Shown: positions 490 to 10,057, counted from the first letter of the stretch. The stretch: DNA of 12,196 nucleotides from an uncultured Deferribacteres bacterium (GCA_964014485.1 CAXHAT010000217.1:1-12196); one strand, 5' to 3'. A program made the numbers and translations. The notes: a model not told the origin generated them from the sequence alone.

Positions 490-1248
490 ATGAAACGCAT
501 TACTTTTTTTGCTTACGGCGTTATTTGTTACGCCATCTTTTTTGCGACTTTTCTTTACGCTATCGGATTTATCGGCAACGTCTTTGTACCTAAATCAATG
601 GATTCCGGCCCCGTCGGCCCAATGCTGCCGGCGCTCTTGATTAACGCCGCACTGCTCGGCATTTTTGCCGTTCAACACAGCGTCATGGCGCGACCCGCCT
701 TCAAAAAGTGGTGGACGCGTTTTGTTCCTGAACCTGTTGAGCGCAGCACCTACGTCTTGCTTTCAAGCGTCGCTTTGATCGTCATGTTTGCTTTTTGGCA
801 GCCGCTTGGCGGAACTATCTGGAATGTTGAATCCCCGGCAGGCGTCATCGTTTTGCGGACATTGTACGCTTTCGGCTGGCTCCTCGTTTTGGTCGCAACA
901 TTCTTGATCAATCATTTCGACCTTTTCGGCCTGCGGCAAGTTTGGTACTACCTGCGCGGCAAAGAATACAAGCCGCTTGGTTTTCAGAAACCCTGGTTGT
1001 ACAAATATGTACGCCACCCGCTTTATGTAGGCTGGCTCTTTGCCTTCTGGGCGACGCCGACAATGACGATTGCGCATCTCGTTTTTGCTCTCGCGACAAC
1101 CGGTTACATCTTGATCGCTATCCAGTTGGAAGAGCGCGATTTGGAAGAAGCTCTCGGTGAAGATTACGCAAAGTATCGCCGGGAAGTGCCGATGCTCGTG
1201 CCAGGTGTGAGCAAACAACCGCAAACGCAAGAAGCCTTGGGTTCATAA
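490..1248 (+). CDS. mddA: Methanethiol S-methyltransferase MddA-like protein (isoprenylcysteine carboxyl methyltransferase/NnrU-like membrane family), 252 aa
   Basis: Multi-TM protein with characteristic motifs FAVQHSVMARPAFKKWW, VERSTYVL, INHFDLFGLRQV, YKYVRHPLYVG, WATPTMT and LEERDL. RBS GAGGAGG at 476-482 supports the ATG at 490 over the TTG at 466. Confidence 0.85.
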   Translation: MKRITFFAYGVICYAIFFATFLYAIGFIGNVFVPKSMDSGPVGPMLPALLINAALLGIFAVQHSVMARPAFKKWWTRFVPEPVERSTYVLLSSVALIVMFAFWQPLGGTIWNVESPAGVIVLRTLYAFGWLLVLVATFLINHFDLFGLRQVWYYLRGKEYKPLGFQKPWLYKYVRHPLYVGWLFAFWATPTMTIAHLVFALATTGYILIAIQLEERDLEEALGEDYAKYRREVPMLVPGVSKQPQTQEALGS

Positions 1249-1295
1249 CTTCAAAGAATTCCGCTCAAATTCAAACGCCGTTTCGCAGGGCGCAG

Positions 1296-1330
1296 AAAAA
1301 TCCTCAGCGGTTTGACCGTTGGGGATTTTT
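1296..1330 (+). terminator. Rho-independent terminator-like hairpin after mddA (possibly bidirectional)
   Basis: AAAAATCCTCAGCGG-TTTGA-CCGTTGGGGATTTTT: a 15-bp stem with 2 G-U pairs, flanked by A5 and T5. Confidence 0.7.
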
Positions 1331-1369
1331 CATAAGAACACAAACTTTTCAAAATATTGAGAATCAAGC

Positions 1370-1927
1370 ATGCCGCCAATTAAGGAAATATTTGAACGGA
1401 AGCAAAAAGCGGTGAAATTACGCCCGTCTGTCGGACAAGGCACTGCAGTGACCAAAGTCCGTTTTCGCGACGGTTTAACATGCGAAATTGAAGACGGCGA
1501 GTGGAAATTGGTCGCAGATATGGCCTCGAAAATCGGCGGCTCGAACCTCGGCCCAAACCCCGGCGTTCTTGGACGCAGCGCGTTAGGCAGTTGTCTCGCG
1601 ATCACTTACTTGCTCTGGGCCGCAAAACTGGATGTGAAGATTGATCATCTTGAAGTCGAAGTTCAGGCGGACTATGACGCTCGCGGAGAGCTTGGCGTTG
1701 ACGACATTTCTCCAGACTATCGCGAAATTCGATACTCGGTCAACATAGAAAGTCCGGCGCCACAAAAAGACGTGCTTGAAATGATCGAAACGGCGGAAGC
1801 GCATTGCTGCTTTCTTTATGTTTTTCGAGACCCGCATCAAATCAAAAGAAAAATCAATATTGAAAATACAGGAGTCAAGAATGGACGCCAGATTACAGCG
1901 CCGCATTCAGCGGTACGGCTGGGATAA
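1370..1927 (+). CDS. OsmC/Ohr family protein
   Basis: Motif D...GG...GPNPGVLGRSALGSCLA (first Cys), then IDHLEVEVQADYDARG, IRYSVNIES and a second Cys region AEAHCCFL. The 3' end overlaps the next gene by 47 nt. Confidence 0.85.
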   Translation: MPPIKEIFERKQKAVKLRPSVGQGTAVTKVRFRDGLTCEIEDGEWKLVADMASKIGGSNLGPNPGVLGRSALGSCLAITYLLWAAKLDVKIDHLEVEVQADYDARGELGVDDISPDYREIRYSVNIESPAPQKDVLEMIETAEAHCCFLYVFRDPHQIKRKINIENTGVKNGRQITAPHSAVRLG

Positions 1928-2699
1928 AGCCGTCCGGTATTACGAGCAATCGTGGCAATCGCAATTAGAACCGGCGCAGTCGCTCATGCTTGAAATGGCC
2001 GATTTGAACGCAGGAGATCGCGTATTGGATACGGCCTGCGGCACAGGCTTGGTCACGTTTCGCGCCGCGAAAACCGTGGGCGGAACCGGCTTTGTTTTCG
2101 GAACGGATATTTCCGACGGCATGGTGCAAACTGCAACGGAAGCAGCAGAAAATCGCGGCTTCCAGAACGTCGCATTTCAACAAATGGATGCGGAAAAGCT
2201 CAAATGCGATCCTGAAGAATTTGACGCAGCGCTCTGCGCCTTGGGCATGATGTACTACCCCGACCCCGTGCAATCGCTGCGTGAATTGCATCGCACCTTG
2301 AAAAGCGGCGCACAAGCTTCGGCGGCGGTTTGGGGACGACGCAGTTATTGCGGCTGGGCGGAAATTTTCCCGATTGTTGACGCGCGCGTAGAAACCGACG
2401 TTTGCCCGCTGTTTTTCCAATTGGGAGCAGGAAACTCCCTGCGCTTCGCTTTTGAGCAAGCGGGGTTCGGGCAAATCGAACAAGAGAGAATTTCCACAAA
2501 ATTAGTTTACGACTCGGCGGAAGAAGCGAGCATGGCGGTCTTTGCAGGAGGCCCCGTCGCACTGGCTTACGAACGATTCGACGAACAAACGCGCGCGGAA
2601 ACGCACGAAGAATACTTGGATTCCATCGCGCCTTATCGCTCCGGCGACGGTTATGAAGTTCCTGGAGAATTCGTTGTCGTTCGCGGCAGAAAGACATGA
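1881..2699 (+). CDS. Class I SAM-dependent methyltransferase (UbiE-like), 272 aa
   Basis: Motif I VLDTACGTG, acidic GTDIS, MDAE, FDAALC and LRELHRTLKSG. RBS AGGAG at 1870-1874 precedes ATG 1881. Confidence 0.9.
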   Translation: MDARLQRRIQRYGWDKAVRYYEQSWQSQLEPAQSLMLEMADLNAGDRVLDTACGTGLVTFRAAKTVGGTGFVFGTDISDGMVQTATEAAENRGFQNVAFQQMDAEKLKCDPEEFDAALCALGMMYYPDPVQSLRELHRTLKSGAQASAAVWGRRSYCGWAEIFPIVDARVETDVCPLFFQLGAGNSLRFAFEQAGFGQIEQERISTKLVYDSAEEASMAVFAGGPVALAYERFDEQTRAETHEEYLDSIAPYRSGDGYEVPGEFVVVRGRKT

Positions 2700-2751
2700 C
2701 AATTTTTCTCAAATGCTGCAGAAAACCAAATCTAAACCATATGAAACGGCC

Positions 2752-3303
2752 ATGAAAACGACCAAAATTTTGATGATCGCGGGTTTGCTCGCTCTGGCGG
2801 CGAACCTCAGCGCCGAAGACAATCAGCCAATGATCGGCAAGCTAGCGCCTGATTTTGCATTGCAAACGACCAGTGGCGACACTGTATCTTCGCAAGCATT
2901 GCGCGGCAAATTTGTCGTCATCCACTTCGCCGCAAGTTGGTGACCTTTCTGCAATGCGGATGCTCCGCATCTGGAAGCGTTACACAAAGAATATCGCGAC
3001 AAAAACGTTCAGGTTTTGATTATCAATGTAAAAGAAAATTTGCAGACGACACAATCCTGGGCGATAGACCGTCACGGTTTTACCTTTCCCGTTCTTTTGG
3101 ATCTCGACGGTCAGGTTGCGACCAGCTTTGCGCCAGGAAACATTCTGCCGGCACTGCCGAGACACGAGGTGCCGATCGCGTCCAACCTGATCATCGACCC
3201 GCAGGGAAAAATTCAATTTTACACGCTGCTCGACAGCCGCAATTTTGACGCGGAACTGATCGAGCTGACCCAAAAACTCAAACAGTTGAGAGGTGAAAAA
3301 TGA
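2752..3303 (+). CDS. Exported TlpA/peroxiredoxin-like (AhpC/TSA, redoxin) thioredoxin-fold selenoprotein, UxxC motif, 183 aa with Sec64
   Basis: ORFs 2542-2943 and 3016-3303 share one frame separated only by TGA 2941-2943. Read-through gives GKLAPDFAL...LRGKFVVIHFAASW-U-PFCNADAPHLEALHKEYRDKNVQVLIINV...FTFPVLLD...LIIDPQGKI, a complete redoxin domain. N-terminal signal peptide MKTTKILMIAGLLALAANLSA. An alternative in-frame ATG exists at 2713. Confidence 0.88.
2945..2977 (+). promoter_or_regulatory. Bacterial SECIS-like stem-loop
   Basis: Perfect upper stem ATGCGGA(2954-2960)-TGC-TCCGCAT(2964-2970) starts at the 11th nt after the UGA and has a G in the apical loop. Lower stem CTTTC(2945-2949)/GGAAG(2973-2977). 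Confidence 0.75.
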
Positions 3304-3782
3304 TACGTGCTATCACATTTCTCACTTTGATTATAATCTTTGGAGCGAGCAACAGCGCTCTGTTTCAAAAAGAAATCGTAGTGATAAAAACCCAGGAAGT
3401 TCAACGCATAGAAATTGGAAAATCCAGCGAAATCGTTATCAAAAGCGTCGTGAAAAACGGCTACCATATTCAAGCAAATCCGGTCGCCGATGAATTCTTG
3501 ATTCCAACACGCGTCACGATAAAATCTGCGGATGGTTTTCGAATTGGCGAACCGGTTTATCCGGTTGGTAAGCCGTTCTCATTTCAAGGCATGGGAGATA
3601 AATTCTCCGTTTACGGCGGCGAATTTATGGTAAAGCTGCCCATCACGCTTGCTTCATCAGTTGCGCCAAAAGAATATTTACTTGAAGGCGAACTTCATTA
3701 CCAGGCTTGCGATTCCGCCACATGCCTGGCGCCGAGAACGATCCCATTTGAGCTCAAAATACAGGCGGCGGCAGCAAAATGA
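3300..3782 (+). CDS. Stand-alone exported DsbD N-terminal (alpha) domain protein
   Basis: Signal peptide and motifs NGYHIQANP, GEPVYP, SVYGGE and LHYQACDSATCLAP (the nDsbD Cys pair). ATGA overlap with the upstream stop codon. Confidence 0.85.
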   Translation: MIRAITFLTLIIIFGASNSALFQKEIVVIKTQEVQRIEIGKSSEIVIKSVVKNGYHIQANPVADEFLIPTRVTIKSADGFRIGEPVYPVGKPFSFQGMGDKFSVYGGEFMVKLPITLASSVAPKEYLLEGELHYQACDSATCLAPRTIPFELKIQAAAAK

Positions 3783-6969: not shown

Positions 6970-7001
6970 TTTTCATAGCAAAATATTTGCGGAGACATAA
7001 A

Positions 7002-7295
7002 ATGAAATATACGGTTTTGCTGACAAAATCAAACGGCAGCTTTCGTGCAACGGTCGCCGGGCTGCCCGATTGCAATGTAACTGCGCGAACGCGTAGTGAA
7101 GCGCTCAAAACCGTGCGCGAAGCAATTTCCGACTTAGTGCATCACAGTGAAGTCGTCGAAGTCGATGTTCCAGAGAAGCCAAAATCAGGTAATCTAAAGG
7201 AAACGACGCCCTGGGAGTGGGCTGGCGCTTTTAAAAACGATTCGACCTGGGGCGAGCTTTTTGATGAAATCGAAGCTCAGAGAAATTCTGCTTAA
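7002..7295 (+). CDS. HicB-family-like antitoxin, 97 aa
   Basis: MKYTVLL...FRATVAGLPDCNVTARTRSEALKTVREAI matches the HicB partial RNase H fold pattern. It has an acidic/aromatic C-terminal tail and RBS GGAG at 6991-6994. Confidence 0.75.
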   Translation: MKYTVLLTKSNGSFRATVAGLPDCNVTARTRSEALKTVREAISDLVHHSEVVEVDVPEKPKSGNLKETTPWEWAGAFKNDSTWGELFDEIEAQRNSA

Positions 7296-7310
7296 AACAA
7301 TTCTTTCCAA

Positions 7311-7730
7311 ATGTACTTGTGGGATTCAAACATTGTTAGGCATTTCGGAGAAGGGCACAAAAATCTTGTTACTCGTCTCCGAAAAATCCCGTGGATGGAA
7401 ATCGCATTGCCTTCCGTTGTTGTCGCTGAAATATTACGCGGACGATGCGATTATGCTTTGAAAGCGCCTCCAGAGCAACTCCCGCAAGCGCACGCCCTTC
7501 TTCTGGAAACAAAGCTGCTTTTGAACCAATTCAATGTTGTCGTTTTCGATGAAGATTGCCTGAAAGCGCTCGAAAGCTTGAAGCAAAAACACAAAATGCA
7601 TAAACGCTACGCCGACCTTGTTATTGCCGCAATTGCAAAATCCGGAGATCATATTATTGTTACGCGAAATGAAAAGGATTTTAAACGACTGCTTCCAAAA
7701 GCCCAAATTGTGAACTGGATCGACAATTGA
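7311..7730 (+). CDS. vapC: PIN-domain (VapC family) toxin
   Basis: YLWDSN, SVVVAEI, ADLVIAAIA and IVTRNEKDF carry the conserved PIN acidic residues. 139 aa, 15 nt downstream of the antitoxin. Confidence 0.9.
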   Translation: MYLWDSNIVRHFGEGHKNLVTRLRKIPWMEIALPSVVVAEILRGRCDYALKAPPEQLPQAHALLLETKLLLNQFNVVVFDEDCLKALESLKQKHKMHKRYADLVIAAIAKSGDHIIVTRNEKDFKRLLPKAQIVNWIDN

Positions 7731-8516: not shown

Positions 8517-9311
8517 ATGCAGCAATATCTTGATCTTCTGCGCCATGTTCGCGAGAACGGCGTTCAAAAAGGCGACCGAACGGGAACGGGCACGTTAAGC
8601 GTTTTTGGCTATCAAATGCGCTTCAAGCTGGCGGACGGTTTCCCGGCGGTGACGACGAAGAAACTCCACTTGCGCTCCATTATTCACGAACTGCTGTGGT
8701 TTTTGAAGGGCGACACCAACATCAAATATTTGAACGATAACGGCGTGACGATTTGGGACGAATGGGCGGATGAAAACGGCGAGTTGGGTCCAATTTACGG
8801 CTACCAGTGGCGTTCATGGCCAGCGCCGAACGGCGAAAGCATCGACCAAATTTCCTGGCTTATCAATGAAATCAAAAACAACCCCAATTCGCGGCGTTTG
8901 ATCGTTAGCGGGTGGAACGTGGCGGATATTGAAAAAATGGCCTTGCCGCCTTGCCACACGCTTTTTCAGTACTACGTCTCCGAAGGCAAGCTTTCCTGTC
9001 AGCTTTACCAGCGCAGCGCGGACGTTTTTCTCGGCGTGCCTTTTAACATTGCGTCCTACGCGTTGATGACGATGATGATCGCTCAAGCCGCCGATTTGGA
9101 GCCCGGCGATTTTGTCCACACGTTCGGCGATACGCATTTGTATTTAAATCATTTAGAGCAGGCTGACCTGCAACTCTCGCGAACGCCCTACCCCCTGCCC
9201 CGCATGCGCATCAATCCTGAAGTCAAAAATATTTTTGACTTTCGTTTTGAAGATTTTGAGTTGGAAGGCTACAAGTGCCACCCGGCCATCAAAGCTCCGA
9301 TCGCAGTTTAA
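8517..9311 (+). CDS. thyA: Thymidylate synthase
   Basis: 264 aa with [68 protein letters not shown] and C-terminal PIAV. Confidence 0.99.
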
Positions 9312-9370
9312 TTACTGATGTTACGCAACTGGCCAATGATACGACATTTGACAAAAAACTTTGCTCTACG

Positions 9371-9444
9371 CGTCATTCCTCTGGAGACAGGAATCCAGGG
9401 GGCAGTGCACCATTTCCTGGATTCCTGCCTCCGCAGGAATGACG
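9371..9444. repeat. REP-like palindromic doublet (GTCATTCC...GGAATCCAG family)
   Basis: 29-nt arms 9371-9399 and 9416-9444 are inverted repeats with 3 mismatches and a 16-nt spacer. Each arm is itself an ATTCCT...AGGAAT hairpin. Confidence 0.85.
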
Positions 9445-9568
9445 TTGAAAAATGTTTTTGGGGCCAAACAGCCCTATTTCCAATTGCAACATTCGACTTG
9501 GCTGGAAACCAATCTACAACAGGCATTATTGGTGAGCGCGTAACATCAGTTAACAATTGGGGGAAGAA

Positions 9569-10057
9569 ATGCGACTCGCGCTGATTGCTGCAATGGATAG
9601 AAACCGCCTGATCGGCAAGAACAACGATTTGCCCTGGCGCTTGCCGGCGGACTTGCGTTGGTTCAAATCAACGACGATGGGCAAGCCGATTATCATGGGG
9701 CGTAAAACGCATGAATCGATTGGAAAAGCGCTGCCTGGACGGAAAAATATCGTCGTCACCAGAAACTCTGCGTTTGAAGCTGAAGGATGTGAAGTCGTTC
9801 ATTCGCTGAATGACGCTTTGGCCGCTTCAAAAGAGGCTGAAGAAGCTGTTGTTATCGGCGGGGCGGCGCTGTACCAAGAGGCGCTGCCAAAAGCGGAGAG
9901 GCTTTATCTCACTTTTGTCGACGCCGAGCTTGACGGCGACGTCTGGTTTCCTGAAATTAATTTTGACGAGTGGGTCGAAACGAAAAGAGACGCCTTTGCG
10001 CCTGATGAAAAGAATAAATTTCCGTATGCATTTGCTGTGTTCGACAGGAAAAAGTAA
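9569..10057 (+). CDS. folA: Dihydrofolate reductase, 162 aa
   Basis: LIAAM...IGKNNDLPWRLPADLRWFK, IIMGRKTHESIG, LPGRKNIVVT, VIGG, LYLT and GDVWFP. Downstream of thyA. Confidence 0.98.
   Translation: MRLALIAAMDRNRLIGKNNDLPWRLPADLRWFKSTTMGKPIIMGRKTHESIGKALPGRKNIVVTRNSAFEAEGCEVVHSLNDALAASKEAEEAVVIGGAALYQEALPKAERLYLTFVDAELDGDVWFPEINFDEWVETKRDAFAPDEKNKFPYAFAVFDRKK

Follow-up and report, generated by a model that had tools for sequence, protein, structure and literature searches.

The window, the whole stretch of DNA that was analysed, comprises 12,196 nt from an uncultured Deferribacteres bacterium (GCA_964014485.1 CAXHAT010000217.1:1-12196). According to the ORF list and the sequence, the region studied, positions 490–3782, carries in one orientation mddA, a strong hairpin, an OsmC-like gene, a class I SAM-dependent methyltransferase (MTase) gene, a gene for a TlpA/Prx-like selenoprotein and a gene for a stand-alone nDsbD protein. 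The features are as follows.

490–1248, + strand: mddA, predicted membrane methanethiol/H2S S-methyltransferase (NCBIfam NF045656 equivalog; GGAGG 5' of the ATG)
1295–1331, + strand: terminator-like 17-bp hairpin with an A-run and a U-run at its flanks, between mddA and the OsmC-like gene (fold)
1370–1927, + strand: OsmC-superfamily gene, atypical partner of the MTase (Pfam OsmC)
1881–2699, + strand: class I SAM-dependent MTase of 272 aa, from an uncharacterised widespread family (Pfam Methyltransf_31, 25, 11)
2752–3303, + strand: TlpA/ResA/AhpC-TSA (Prx)-like secreted thiol:disulfide oxidoreductase, predicted selenoprotein with the motif W-U-P-F-C (translation with TGA as U)
2941–2943, + strand: in-frame TGA, probable selenocysteine codon (opposite the TGT, Cys, of the ortholog in locus L008; sequence conserved past the TGA)
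2954–2970, extended structure 2937–2987, + strand: SECIS-like hairpin with a 7-bp stem and the loop UGC, starting 10 nt 3' of the UGA (fold)
3300–3782, + strand: nDsbD, stand-alone secreted DsbD N-terminal-domain protein (Pfam DsbD_N)

The MTase gene, with an AGGAG at 1871–1875, overlaps the OsmC-like gene by 47 nt; it is followed after a gap of 52 nt by the TlpA-like gene, which in turn overlaps the nDsbD gene by 4 nt. An earlier note on this DNA had described five co-oriented genes, the last four of them overlapping or no more than 52 nt apart, and this layout was confirmed by the ORF list and the sequence; all five gene identities that it gave were upheld by Pfam and NCBIfam profile matches. 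The co-orientation of five genes is unremarkable by itself. What stands above chance is the adjacency of the OsmC-like and MTase genes, which recurs in 75 of 80 related loci.

The mddA product reaches 364.6 bits against NF045656 (cut-off 270), and its residues 2–238 correspond to positions 2–238 of the 238 in the profile. It is thus a full-length member above the curated cut-off, the gene itself showing no unusual feature, and as judged from the profile the product is a bona fide membrane methanethiol/H2S S-methyltransferase. The intergenic stretch 1249–1369 folds at -35.5 kcal/mol (z = -4.4), a stability attained by none of 200 shuffles. The terminator that had been proposed between mddA and the other genes corresponds to the hairpin at 1295–1331, which is terminator-like in its stem and flanking runs; it is absent from the output of a simple consensus terminator scan. 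mddA in the window would form a unit of its own, ended by its own terminator-like hairpin.

The neighbourhood was followed in 80 public loci around orthologs of the MTase. They rank highest among at least 589 tblastn matches and form neither a random nor a complete sample. An OsmC-like gene on the same strand as the MTase gene was found in 75 of the loci, upstream in 68 and downstream in seven. Where the upstream ORF was intact (67 loci), the median gap between the two genes was 3 nt; 14 pairs overlapped, and 38 lay 1–50 nt apart. The loci come from Balneolota, Bacteroidota, Calditrichota, Ignavibacteriota, Gemmatimonadota, Acidobacteriota, Pseudomonadota, Verrucomicrobiota, Latescibacterota and other phyla. 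By contrast, TlpA-like and nDsbD genes stand beside the pair in only one of the 80, locus L008 from a Melioribacter roseus MAG, and because of these two counts the OsmC-like and MTase genes are regarded as the conserved unit. Apart from this, the genes that directly flank the pair are varied, with peptidases, dehydrogenases, regulators and many proteins without a family among the 74 upstream and 76 downstream neighbours scanned. A weak search among longer proteins found no fusion of OsmC and MTase.

Within these varied contexts, the pair is recurrently linked to methanethiol genes. mddA lies no more than 6 kb from it in six of the 80 loci, all six products scoring above the NCBIfam MddA cut-off (300.9–360.6 bits), and in L022 and L057 the gap between mddA and the OsmC gene is below 30 nt. 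A gene of the SBP56 (methanethiol-oxidase) family adjoins the pair in five of the 80. Two of the products were scanned and gave about 632 bits each against Pfam SBP56, the remaining ones being assigned by clustering; an SBP56 protein checked against the NCBIfam MtoX equivalog scored 113.9 bits, the cut-off being 650. In L068 the order SBP56-SCO1-MTase-OsmC is tightly packed. The MddA and SBP56 families are unrelated, and the 11 loci linked to one or the other belong to several phyla and show different arrangements. On the tree of the MTase the linked rows are scattered, with 10 state changes among the 12 rows labelled, and both families are among the five most recurrent of 173 neighbour clusters when shadow ORFs are set aside. 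Since mddA and SBP56 recur beside the pair, the theme of sulfur or selenium methylation raised in the earlier note is reasonable, but not in the form of a five-gene system. The accessible parts of the Mdd literature searched made no mention of a recurrent placement of mddA beside an OsmC-MTase pair.

The MTase has 6683 database relatives, of which the best 120 are 57–66% identical over the full length. The earlier note had named a quinone methyltransferase as the outcome that would speak against its proposal; by the NCBIfam cut-offs the enzyme is not one, with 68.4 bits against 216 for UbiE (NF001244) and 64.7 against 158.35 for MenG/UbiE (TIGR01934), both matching only the SAM core at residues ~37–146. 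No MddH model was among the NCBIfam matches. The AF2 model (pLDDT 88.3) shows a conserved N-terminal helix and a Cys-bearing C-terminal lid, and the two family-invariant cysteines, C157 and C175, lie in this lid between the strand 140–151 and the helix 186–194. The top Foldseek matches to the model were OxaG, GtmA/TmtA and RoqN, at 17–20% identity. GtmA/TmtA are fungal gliotoxin thiol S-methyltransferases (PDB 5jgk, 5egp) with a near fold (query-normalised TM 0.72, E ~1e-18). However, they share 17–18% identity with the window MTase and act on large dithiol natural products, and OxaG, RoqN and other O-/N-methyltransferases score similarly.

The window MTase can also be compared with MddH, MddM1 and MddM2, which, according to the accessible text of their reports (PMC11445057; PMC12904073), are likewise class I SAM enzymes and carry GxGxG as it does. 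It would share with them the proposed type of substrate and the part played in detoxification, and its family shares the genomic theme with methanethiol genes. The known enzymes are compact single domains of ~204–220 aa (MlMddH, 24.24 kDa; MddM1, 210 aa; MddM2, 204 aa), whereas the window MTase, at 272 aa, has the extra conserved N-terminal helix and the Cys lid. No OsmC partner is described in the accessible parts of those papers, and the window MTase is set apart from their enzymes by size and architecture. An identity of >45% to MddH is the criterion used in published work on class I Mdd enzymes, as far as its available text goes.

The OsmC-like protein matches PF02566 with 57.7 bits (cut-off 27.5; 1.6e-15). 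Its best NCBIfam match is 'OsmC-related (seleno)protein', at 67.8 bits against a cut-off of 95. With the OsmC/Ohr thiol peroxidases it shares the OsmC domain, the first Cys (C75) and an Arg (R69), both residues being invariant in 73 of 73 partners. Partners of this type usually lack the canonical second (resolving) Cys, the position being Cys in eight of the 73 and Ser in 60, and another Cys, C38, is found in 64. The window protein has both cysteines, C75 and C146/C147, and its C-terminal ~20 residues, which run into the MTase gene, are found in no other partner. Against canonical OsmC/Ohr structures its profile scores weakly (E 1e-5 to 3e-4), and 2opl, an uncharacterised structural-genomics entry, ranks first.

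The explanation to which we give a probability of about one half is that the region is a mosaic of three units, mddA, the OsmC-MTase pair and the selenocysteine-containing TlpA-like protein with nDsbD, in which the pair methylates a chalcogen or thiol with a Cys-based helper. The 272-aa enzyme would catalyse the SAM-dependent methylation of a small reduced chalcogen nucleophile, which we infer to be H2S or methanethiol and possibly selenide or methaneselenol, and the substrate would be bound under the lid with the two invariant cysteines. The OsmC-like partner, with one invariant Cys, one invariant Arg and usually no resolving Cys, would be the helper; it might remove peroxide formed alongside thiol oxidation, or it might reduce disulfides or polysulfides to a thiol that can be methylated. 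Methanethiol oxidase yields H2O2 and H2S, according to the accessible part of PMC6548844, and the known Mdd enzymes relieve MeSH, H2S or oxidative stress, according to that of PMC11445057 and PMC12904073. The pair may complement MddA, or methanethiol oxidase, in the detoxification of methanethiol and sulfide.

As the pair occurs across many phyla, often by methanethiol-handling genes, it is a candidate new module for the methylation of volatile sulfur (or selenium). A bolder and tentative proposal, which we consider rather doubtful at present, is that the OsmC-like protein and the 272-aa MTase form a fifth, phylogenetically very broad system for the methylation of H2S or methanethiol (possibly selenide) that, unlike MddA, MddH and MddM1/2, needs or is tuned by a dedicated one-Cys OsmC-type partner. 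If true, it could explain part of the 'unknown Mdd enzymes' that PMC13360808, in its accessible text, infers for Bacteroidota, and it would join methanethiol oxidase, MddA and DMS formation in one detoxification network.

The OsmC family are classically peroxidases, and it is possible, though we do not favour it, that the pair is instead a module for general stress or for the methylation of small molecules, such as peroxide defence with O- or N-methylation, that is not tied specifically to sulfur or selenium and stands next to mddA incidentally. Neither MddA nor SBP56 occurs in the fetched flanks of 69 of the 80 loci, and the neighbours of the pair are heterogeneous; many O-, N- and C-methyltransferases are among the Foldseek matches, with scores similar to those of the thiol enzymes; and the databases hold only generic names for the MTase family. 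Such a module would, however, leave aside that two unrelated families of methanethiol enzymes stand beside the pair in 11 loci of several phyla and in varied arrangements, and that most OsmC partners lack the canonical resolving Cys. Further class I methyltransferases also adjoin the pair in several loci, L002, L047, L048, L056, L060, L067 and L076 by Pfam and L013 by clustering.

It is unlikely that all five genes form one pathway, as the earlier note had suggested, in which three thiol-redox proteins reduce oxidised sulfur or selenium species and two methyltransferases volatilise the products. The genes are indeed co-oriented and closely spaced, and L008 has all five in the same order, with a DUF4395 gene inserted, in spite of protein identities of only 43–58%. 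A tlpA-like gene is also included in the mtoX clusters of Methylophaga, according to the part of PMC6548844 that was accessible. Nevertheless, the claim of a conserved five-gene neighbourhood survives only for its parts, the OsmC-MTase pair (75 of 80 loci) and mddA (six of 80), and the claim of one conserved system fails, the TlpA-like and nDsbD genes accompanying the pair in L008 alone among heterogeneous neighbours. A redoxin is found once among the 76 downstream neighbours, and one thioredoxin and one SCO1 among the 74 upstream. The terminator-like hairpin between mddA and the rest also argues against a single pathway. In addition, the TlpA-like and nDsbD proteins have N-terminal sequences like signal peptides, read by eye rather than by a predictor, whereas no such sequence is seen in the OsmC-like protein or the MTase, and a direct relay between the two sets would for this reason be topologically awkward. 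Cross-talk among the three units is conceivable.

It is very unlikely that the MTase is an ArsM-like enzyme in which the conserved cysteines hold a metalloid (As, Sb or Te) for methylation while the OsmC-like protein recycles a catalytic disulfide. The invariant C157 and C175 and the motif-I Cys, C53, are consistent with it, as are the weak scores against NCBIfam models of the ArsM type, those for ArsM fused to AhpD-type selenoprotein domains among them, and the ArsR-HTH-methyltransferase fusion that adjoins the pair in L048. However, a motif-I Cys is common in class I methyltransferases, the ArsM subfamily model (NF008823) is matched at 66.7 bits (cut-off 263) over the SAM-binding core only, and no arsenic-resistance Pfam family (arsenate reductase, arsenite pump) was present among the 150 immediate neighbours scanned.

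In the mosaic of three units, the TlpA-like protein is assigned by matches to AhpC-TSA (93.3 bits), Redoxin (78.7 bits) and the ResA subfamily (80.7 bits). Reading the TGA at 2941 as selenocysteine is well supported by the aligned sequences, and the protein would be a selenoprotein of an already known kind. The position of the TGA is Cys in 17 of 17 aligned homologs, and the ortholog in L008 has TGT there; W63, P65 and C67 are invariant, and conservation reaches the C-terminus. The stretch 2935–3005 folds at -20.3 kcal/mol (z = -2.2), with five of 200 shuffles as stable. A local 30-nt segment folds at -10.6 kcal/mol; the corresponding segment of the L008 ortholog, which has Cys (TGT) and lacks the SECIS-like hairpin with its G in the apical loop, folds at -3.6 kcal/mol. 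Rfam gave no match at the gathering score for this hairpin, and no tRNA gene was found in the 12-kb window. That the TGA is a true stop, arising from a nonsense mutation or sequencing error and leaving a pseudogene, is highly improbable, for while a single base change from TGT or TGC suffices, the z value of the hairpin is modest and no Sec machinery is visible in the 12-kb window, the TGA falls exactly on the first position of the redox motif, the downstream conservation and the 4-nt coupling to nDsbD are intact, the hairpin has a G in its loop and begins 10 nt past the UGA, and redoxins with UxxC are established as selenoproteins (PMC1088965).

Both UxxC Prx-like and thiol-disulfide-isomerase-like proteins are listed as bacterial selenoprotein families in the accessible text of PMC1088965. 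The window protein shares with the UxxC Prx-like and ResA/TlpA proteins the thioredoxin fold and the W-U-x-x-C motif, ResA being the best solved relative, but the other members of its ortholog group, 17 as aligned, contain Cys. nDsbD scores 38.5 bits against PF11412 (cut-off 25); it keeps the DsbD_N domain and both cysteines of DsbD and lacks the membrane and C-terminal domains. Exchange with a thioredoxin-fold protein is classic for nDsbD, and the combination of the two mirrors the established DsbD relay. The two proteins may form a periplasmic thiol-reductant relay that is only occasionally linked to the OsmC-MTase pair; a membrane electron donor for it is absent from the window. The two cysteines of nDsbD, C137 and C142 (spacing C-x4-C), are kept by all 16 aligned relatives, and stand-alone forms of ~155–170 aa dominate its top 150 matches.

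The earlier note had proposed that mddA, an OsmC-like gene, a class I SAM-dependent methyltransferase gene (MTase), a selenoprotein gene and a gene for the N-terminal domain of DsbD (nDsbD) form a single sulfur/selenium methylation and redox system. As a description of the DNA this holds: coordinates and family scans bear out five co-oriented genes on the + strand between 490 and 3782 and, since the scans back every gene name, the observation itself is confirmed. The features of this region are as follows.

490–1248, + strand: mddA; passes the NCBI equivalog cut-off (364.6 bits vs. 270)
1295–1331: hairpin of 17 bp with an A-run and a U-run at its flanks, within the 121-nt mddA/OsmC-like spacer
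1370–1927, + strand: OsmC-like gene; Pfam OsmC above threshold
1881–2699, + strand: class I SAM methyltransferase (MTase); generic class I models only
2752–3303, + strand: TlpA/ResA/AhpC-TSA-like gene; Pfam AhpC-TSA/Redoxin above threshold, in-frame TGA at 2941–2943
3300–3782, + strand: nDsbD; Pfam DsbD_N above threshold

The MTase gene is preceded by AGGAG and overlaps the OsmC-like gene by 47 nt; 52 nt separate it from the TlpA-like gene, which nDsbD overlaps by 4 nt. The caveat that a terminator stands between mddA and the remaining genes was well placed, as the spacer folds at −35.5 kcal/mol (z = −4.4) and none of 200 shuffles was equally stable. A consensus terminator scan of the window missed this hairpin, and a consensus promoter scan was uninformative (three promoter-like sites vs. 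3.2 expected). The Rfam scan of the window gave no family at gathering score and thus no riboswitch or curated SECIS match, and a search for tRNA genes found none.

The MTase belongs to a large family, with 6683 relatives among the scored candidates, of which the 120 best are 57–66% identical, full length and 270–297 aa long. An alignment of 34 family members was used to scan genome contigs, and the 80 highest-ranking of at least 589 confirmed loci (designated here by L numbers) were compared; these are top tblastn matches rather than a random sample, and they span more than 10 phyla. When they were searched by tblastn with the window proteins (E ≤ 1e-5), an OsmC-like gene was found on the MTase strand in 75 of the 80, upstream in 68 and downstream in seven, the latter being mostly proteobacterial and including one partial match (L018). 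Two of the five loci without a match (L050 and L063) have at most about 100 nt of upstream DNA, while L011, L033 and L076 have no OsmC-like gene. By the same search, mddA is present in six loci and the TlpA-like and nDsbD genes in one each, both in the same Melioribacter roseus MAG locus (L008); the ROK, hydrolase and MBL genes that follow further downstream here have a counterpart in 0 of 80. The difference between 75 loci for the OsmC-like gene and one to six for the others indicates that the conserved unit is OsmC plus MTase, not five genes. The proposed system therefore stands in part, with the pair general and mddA recurrent, but the TlpA-like and nDsbD genes accompany it in one locus only. 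All five genes occur together only in L008, where the order is mddA, DUF4395, osmC, MTase, TlpA-like (in Cys form) and nDsbD. The DUF4395 membrane protein of L008 (4984–5469, 56.7 bits) lies between mddA and the OsmC-like gene, where the window has the hairpin spacer.

In the 67 loci where the partner is upstream, the two genes, measured between ORFs, stand a median of 3 nt apart; an overlap of 1 or 4 nt occurs in 14 of these, and a gap of 1–50 nt in 38. Alignments by tblastn extending to residue 185 made the 47-nt overlap look conserved too, but this proved to be an artefact: the N-terminus of the MTase is conserved and was picked up in a different frame. In the other loci, the ORF-level partners end at or just before the MTase start. 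The overlap in the window comes from a C-terminal tail of about 20 residues on the OsmC-like protein (1868–1927), absent from the other partners, the stop of which lies 47 nt inside the MTase gene. A Solibacteraceae MAG locus (L047, 5400–6000) has its OsmC-like gene split; a Sec codon hidden in the short ORF was ruled out, the interruption being a frameshift and not a TGA, and the split gene is either a pseudogene or the product of an assembly error. Proteins of more than 324 aa were also searched for OsmC fusions, with no hit, though this search is rated as weak. The predicted complex of an OsmC-like dimer with the MTase scored 0.00 against a mark of 0.32 in a run without controls, which speaks neither for nor against such a complex. 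On plasmids, tblastn with the MTase gave only matches of about 32% identity in Ensifer and Sinorhizobium, in records unannotated at that place.

One alternative for the MTase, already named in the earlier note, is a quinone methyltransferase. The MTase does match the UbiE and MenG models, but only over the SAM-binding core and far below their NCBIfam cut-offs (68.4 vs. 216 and 64.7 vs. 158.35 bits), which argues against this assignment. The same is true of ArsM (66.7 vs. 263 bits, SAM-binding core only), and the ESM Atlas names are limited to the generic "class I SAM-dependent methyltransferase". The family is marked by a strongly conserved N-terminal helix, Q-R-x-x-Q-R-Y-G-W, and by a segment C-G-W-A ... 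V-C-P-x-F-F; C157, C175 and C53 of motif I are invariant in the 34-member alignment. In the AlphaFold2 model (pLDDT 88.3, pTM 0.86), C157 and C175 lie in a less confident segment between the strand 140–151 and the helix 186–194. A Foldseek search of the PDB placed OxaG, GtmA/TmtA and RoqN on top at 17–20% identity. GtmA/TmtA, which are gliotoxin thiol S-methyltransferases, resemble the model with a TM of 0.72, with other natural-product O- and N-methyltransferases close behind. Compared by published size, the class I Mdd enzymes MddH, MddM1 and MddM2 are smaller than the window MTase: MlMddH is given as 24.24 kDa (PMC11445057), and MddM1 and MddM2 as 210 and 204 aa (PMC12904073).

The partner was compared through residue counts over 73 sequences and an alignment of 36 rows. 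C75 and R69 are invariant in the 73, and C38 is found in 64. At the position of the canonical second cysteine, 60 partners have Ser and only eight have Cys; C146 and C147 are found in the window protein. Against structures of canonical OsmC and Ohr proteins the partner profile gives weak matches, and its best match is the uncharacterised entry 2opl. Judged by these residues, the partner would count as an atypical OsmC-superfamily protein with, in effect, a single Cys.

To describe the surroundings of the pair, the complete set of ORFs from the window and the 80 loci was clustered, and the clusters were mostly named from one scanned representative each. Leaving aside the pair itself and antisense shadow ORFs, the commonest neighbour is a TPR protein (10 loci), followed by a Ser/Thr-kinase-TPR protein (eight loci), both mostly in Balneolota and Rhodothermota. 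The MddA cluster covers six loci and the window, and an NmrA-like protein six loci. All six MddA neighbours exceed the NCBIfam cut-off, and in L022 and L057 mddA lies less than 30 nt from the OsmC-like gene. In five further loci (L031, L047, L055, L068 and L073) the neighbour is SBP56, the family to which the Cu-dependent methanethiol oxidase belongs (PMC5739008). Two SBP56 genes were scanned, each giving about 632 bits on Pfam, and the one protein checked against the MtoX equivalog scored 113.9 bits vs. a cut-off of 650. L068 is tightly packed in the order SBP56, SCO1, MTase, OsmC, and L026 carries SCO1, MTase and OsmC at a contig edge. In a quick maximum-likelihood tree of 81 MTases with weak backbone support, the 12 MddA- or SBP56-linked rows are scattered (10 state changes), so the linkage does not stem from one recent inheritance.

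Directly after SBP56, a polytopic membrane protein of about 212–240 aa is encoded in L031 (3928–4632), L047 (8258–8980) and L055 (4824–5462). It has a conserved motif, G-A-F-H-G-x-N-P-G-M-G-W, in all three loci and no match in Pfam or NCBIfam, and its role may be to transport a metal (Cu?) that the oxidase needs. In L068, its place is taken by the SCO1/SenC-like protein, with about 90% of residues identical, by eye, to the Pfam-confirmed SCO1 of L026.

Immediate neighbours are otherwise heterogeneous (74 upstream and 76 downstream scanned), and the thiol-redox proteins among them are limited to a thioredoxin (L053), SCO1 (L026) and a redoxin (L008). A second class I methyltransferase of about 217 aa is found directly upstream in L060 (3–548), L067 (4681–5334) and L076 (51–635), in the last of which it stands where the OsmC-like gene would be; it was considered as a candidate MddH, but matches UbiE models only weakly (50–55 bits) and, across the SAM core, shares 24% identity with the window MTase. 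Further methyltransferases lie beside the pair in L002, L047, L048 and L056 (by Pfam) and L013 (by clustering), and FMO-like flavoproteins near it in L021, L051 and L063. An ECF sigma factor, a Ser/Thr kinase-TPR protein and a TPR protein of about 550 aa are encoded upstream of the pair in L057, L067, L073 and L038; this set recurs mainly in Balneolota and Rhodothermota loci and may be a dedicated regulatory module.

On the reading considered most likely, the MTase would methylate a small thiol or chalcogenide, namely H2S or MeSH, or possibly selenide or methaneselenol. Four lines point to this reading: the near-obligate, translationally coupled pairing of the two genes, the cysteine pattern in both proteins, the fold likeness to thiol S-methyltransferases, and the repeated adjacency to two unrelated methanethiol enzymes. 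The OsmC-like protein would then act as a Cys-based helper of the MTase. It could dispose of peroxide; methanethiol oxidase is described as yielding H2O2 and H2S (PMC6548844). Alternatively, it could reduce a disulfide or polysulfide to a methylatable thiol. The role proposed for known Mdd enzymes is detoxification of MeSH and H2S (PMC11445057) and, in the case of MddM1/2, relief of oxidative stress (PMC12904073). In the window, the Sec-TlpA-like protein and nDsbD might form a periplasmic reductant relay, the membrane electron donor of which is absent from the window. Methylophaga mtoX clusters are reported to include a tlpA-like gene (PMC6548844), which keeps a looser connection of these two proteins possible.

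Read with TGA as U, the fourth gene encodes a protein of 183 aa that begins like a signal peptide and carries the motif W-U-P-F-C. The TGA at 2941–2943 is accepted as a putative Sec codon: its position is Cys in 17 of 17 aligned homologs (48–61% identical), and the ortholog in L008 has TGT there. A nonsense mutation, another way to account for the TGA, is unlikely; W63, P65 and C67 are invariant in the alignment and conservation reaches the C-terminus. A hairpin with a 7-bp stem and the loop UGC begins 10 nt past the UGA. The 71-nt region at the UGA folds at −20.3 kcal/mol (z = −2.2; five of 200 shuffles equally stable), and a local stretch of 30 nt at −10.6 kcal/mol, vs. −3.6 for its counterpart in the Cys ortholog. 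Established bacterial selenoprotein families include UxxC "Prx-like" and "thiol-disulfide isomerase-like" proteins (PMC1088965). As for nDsbD, both redox cysteines are invariant in 16 of 16 aligned relatives, and it falls in a large group of stand-alone proteins of about 155–170 aa (3223 representative clusters at E ≤ 0.001). Both the selenoprotein and nDsbD are unremarkable examples of kinds already known.

When microbes methylate H2S and methanethiol to DMS, they influence both the cycling of sulfur and how much of a climate-active gas is supplied; new enzyme families for this reaction were reported in 2024 and 2025. A 2026 review considers that further unknown Mdd enzymes probably exist, Bacteroidota included (PMC13360808). 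With thousands of relatives in more than 10 phyla, a near-obligate OsmC-like partner and recurrence beside mddA and SBP56, the MTase family is a concrete Mdd-type candidate that is directly testable by a GC assay. A search of the open-access literature found no paper describing an OsmC-methyltransferase pair; a loose parallel is the osmC of SAR11, reported beside bhmT under SAM riboswitch control (PMC5069961). As far as can be seen, the conserved pair and its context are undescribed, while the single genes belong to known superfamilies. Should the function differ, the pair remains a widespread, unannotated two-gene module that deserves a name.

Several other features of the window were noted. 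Upstream of mddA, at 39–162, three successive short palindromic hairpins, among them a perfect 17-nt arm pair around 78–125, lie in an imperfect 60-nt inverted repeat (75% complementary). They could serve as terminator for a gene lying upstream, or represent a REP-like element. The long non-coding mddA leader also contains three copies of an A/T-rich palindromic motif (TGAAAAAAATTT / AAATTTTTTTCA) at 230–306, which may be a regulatory site. At 6987–7730, a small 102-aa ORF that matches nothing in Pfam lies 15 nt ahead of a gene for a PIN domain (PF01850, 8.3e-11), the customary layout of VapBC-type toxin-antitoxin systems. Finally, the stretch 8517–10057 contains thyA (thymidylate synthase, 423.8 bits) and, on the same strand across a 245-nt spacer, folA (DHFR, 215.8 bits).
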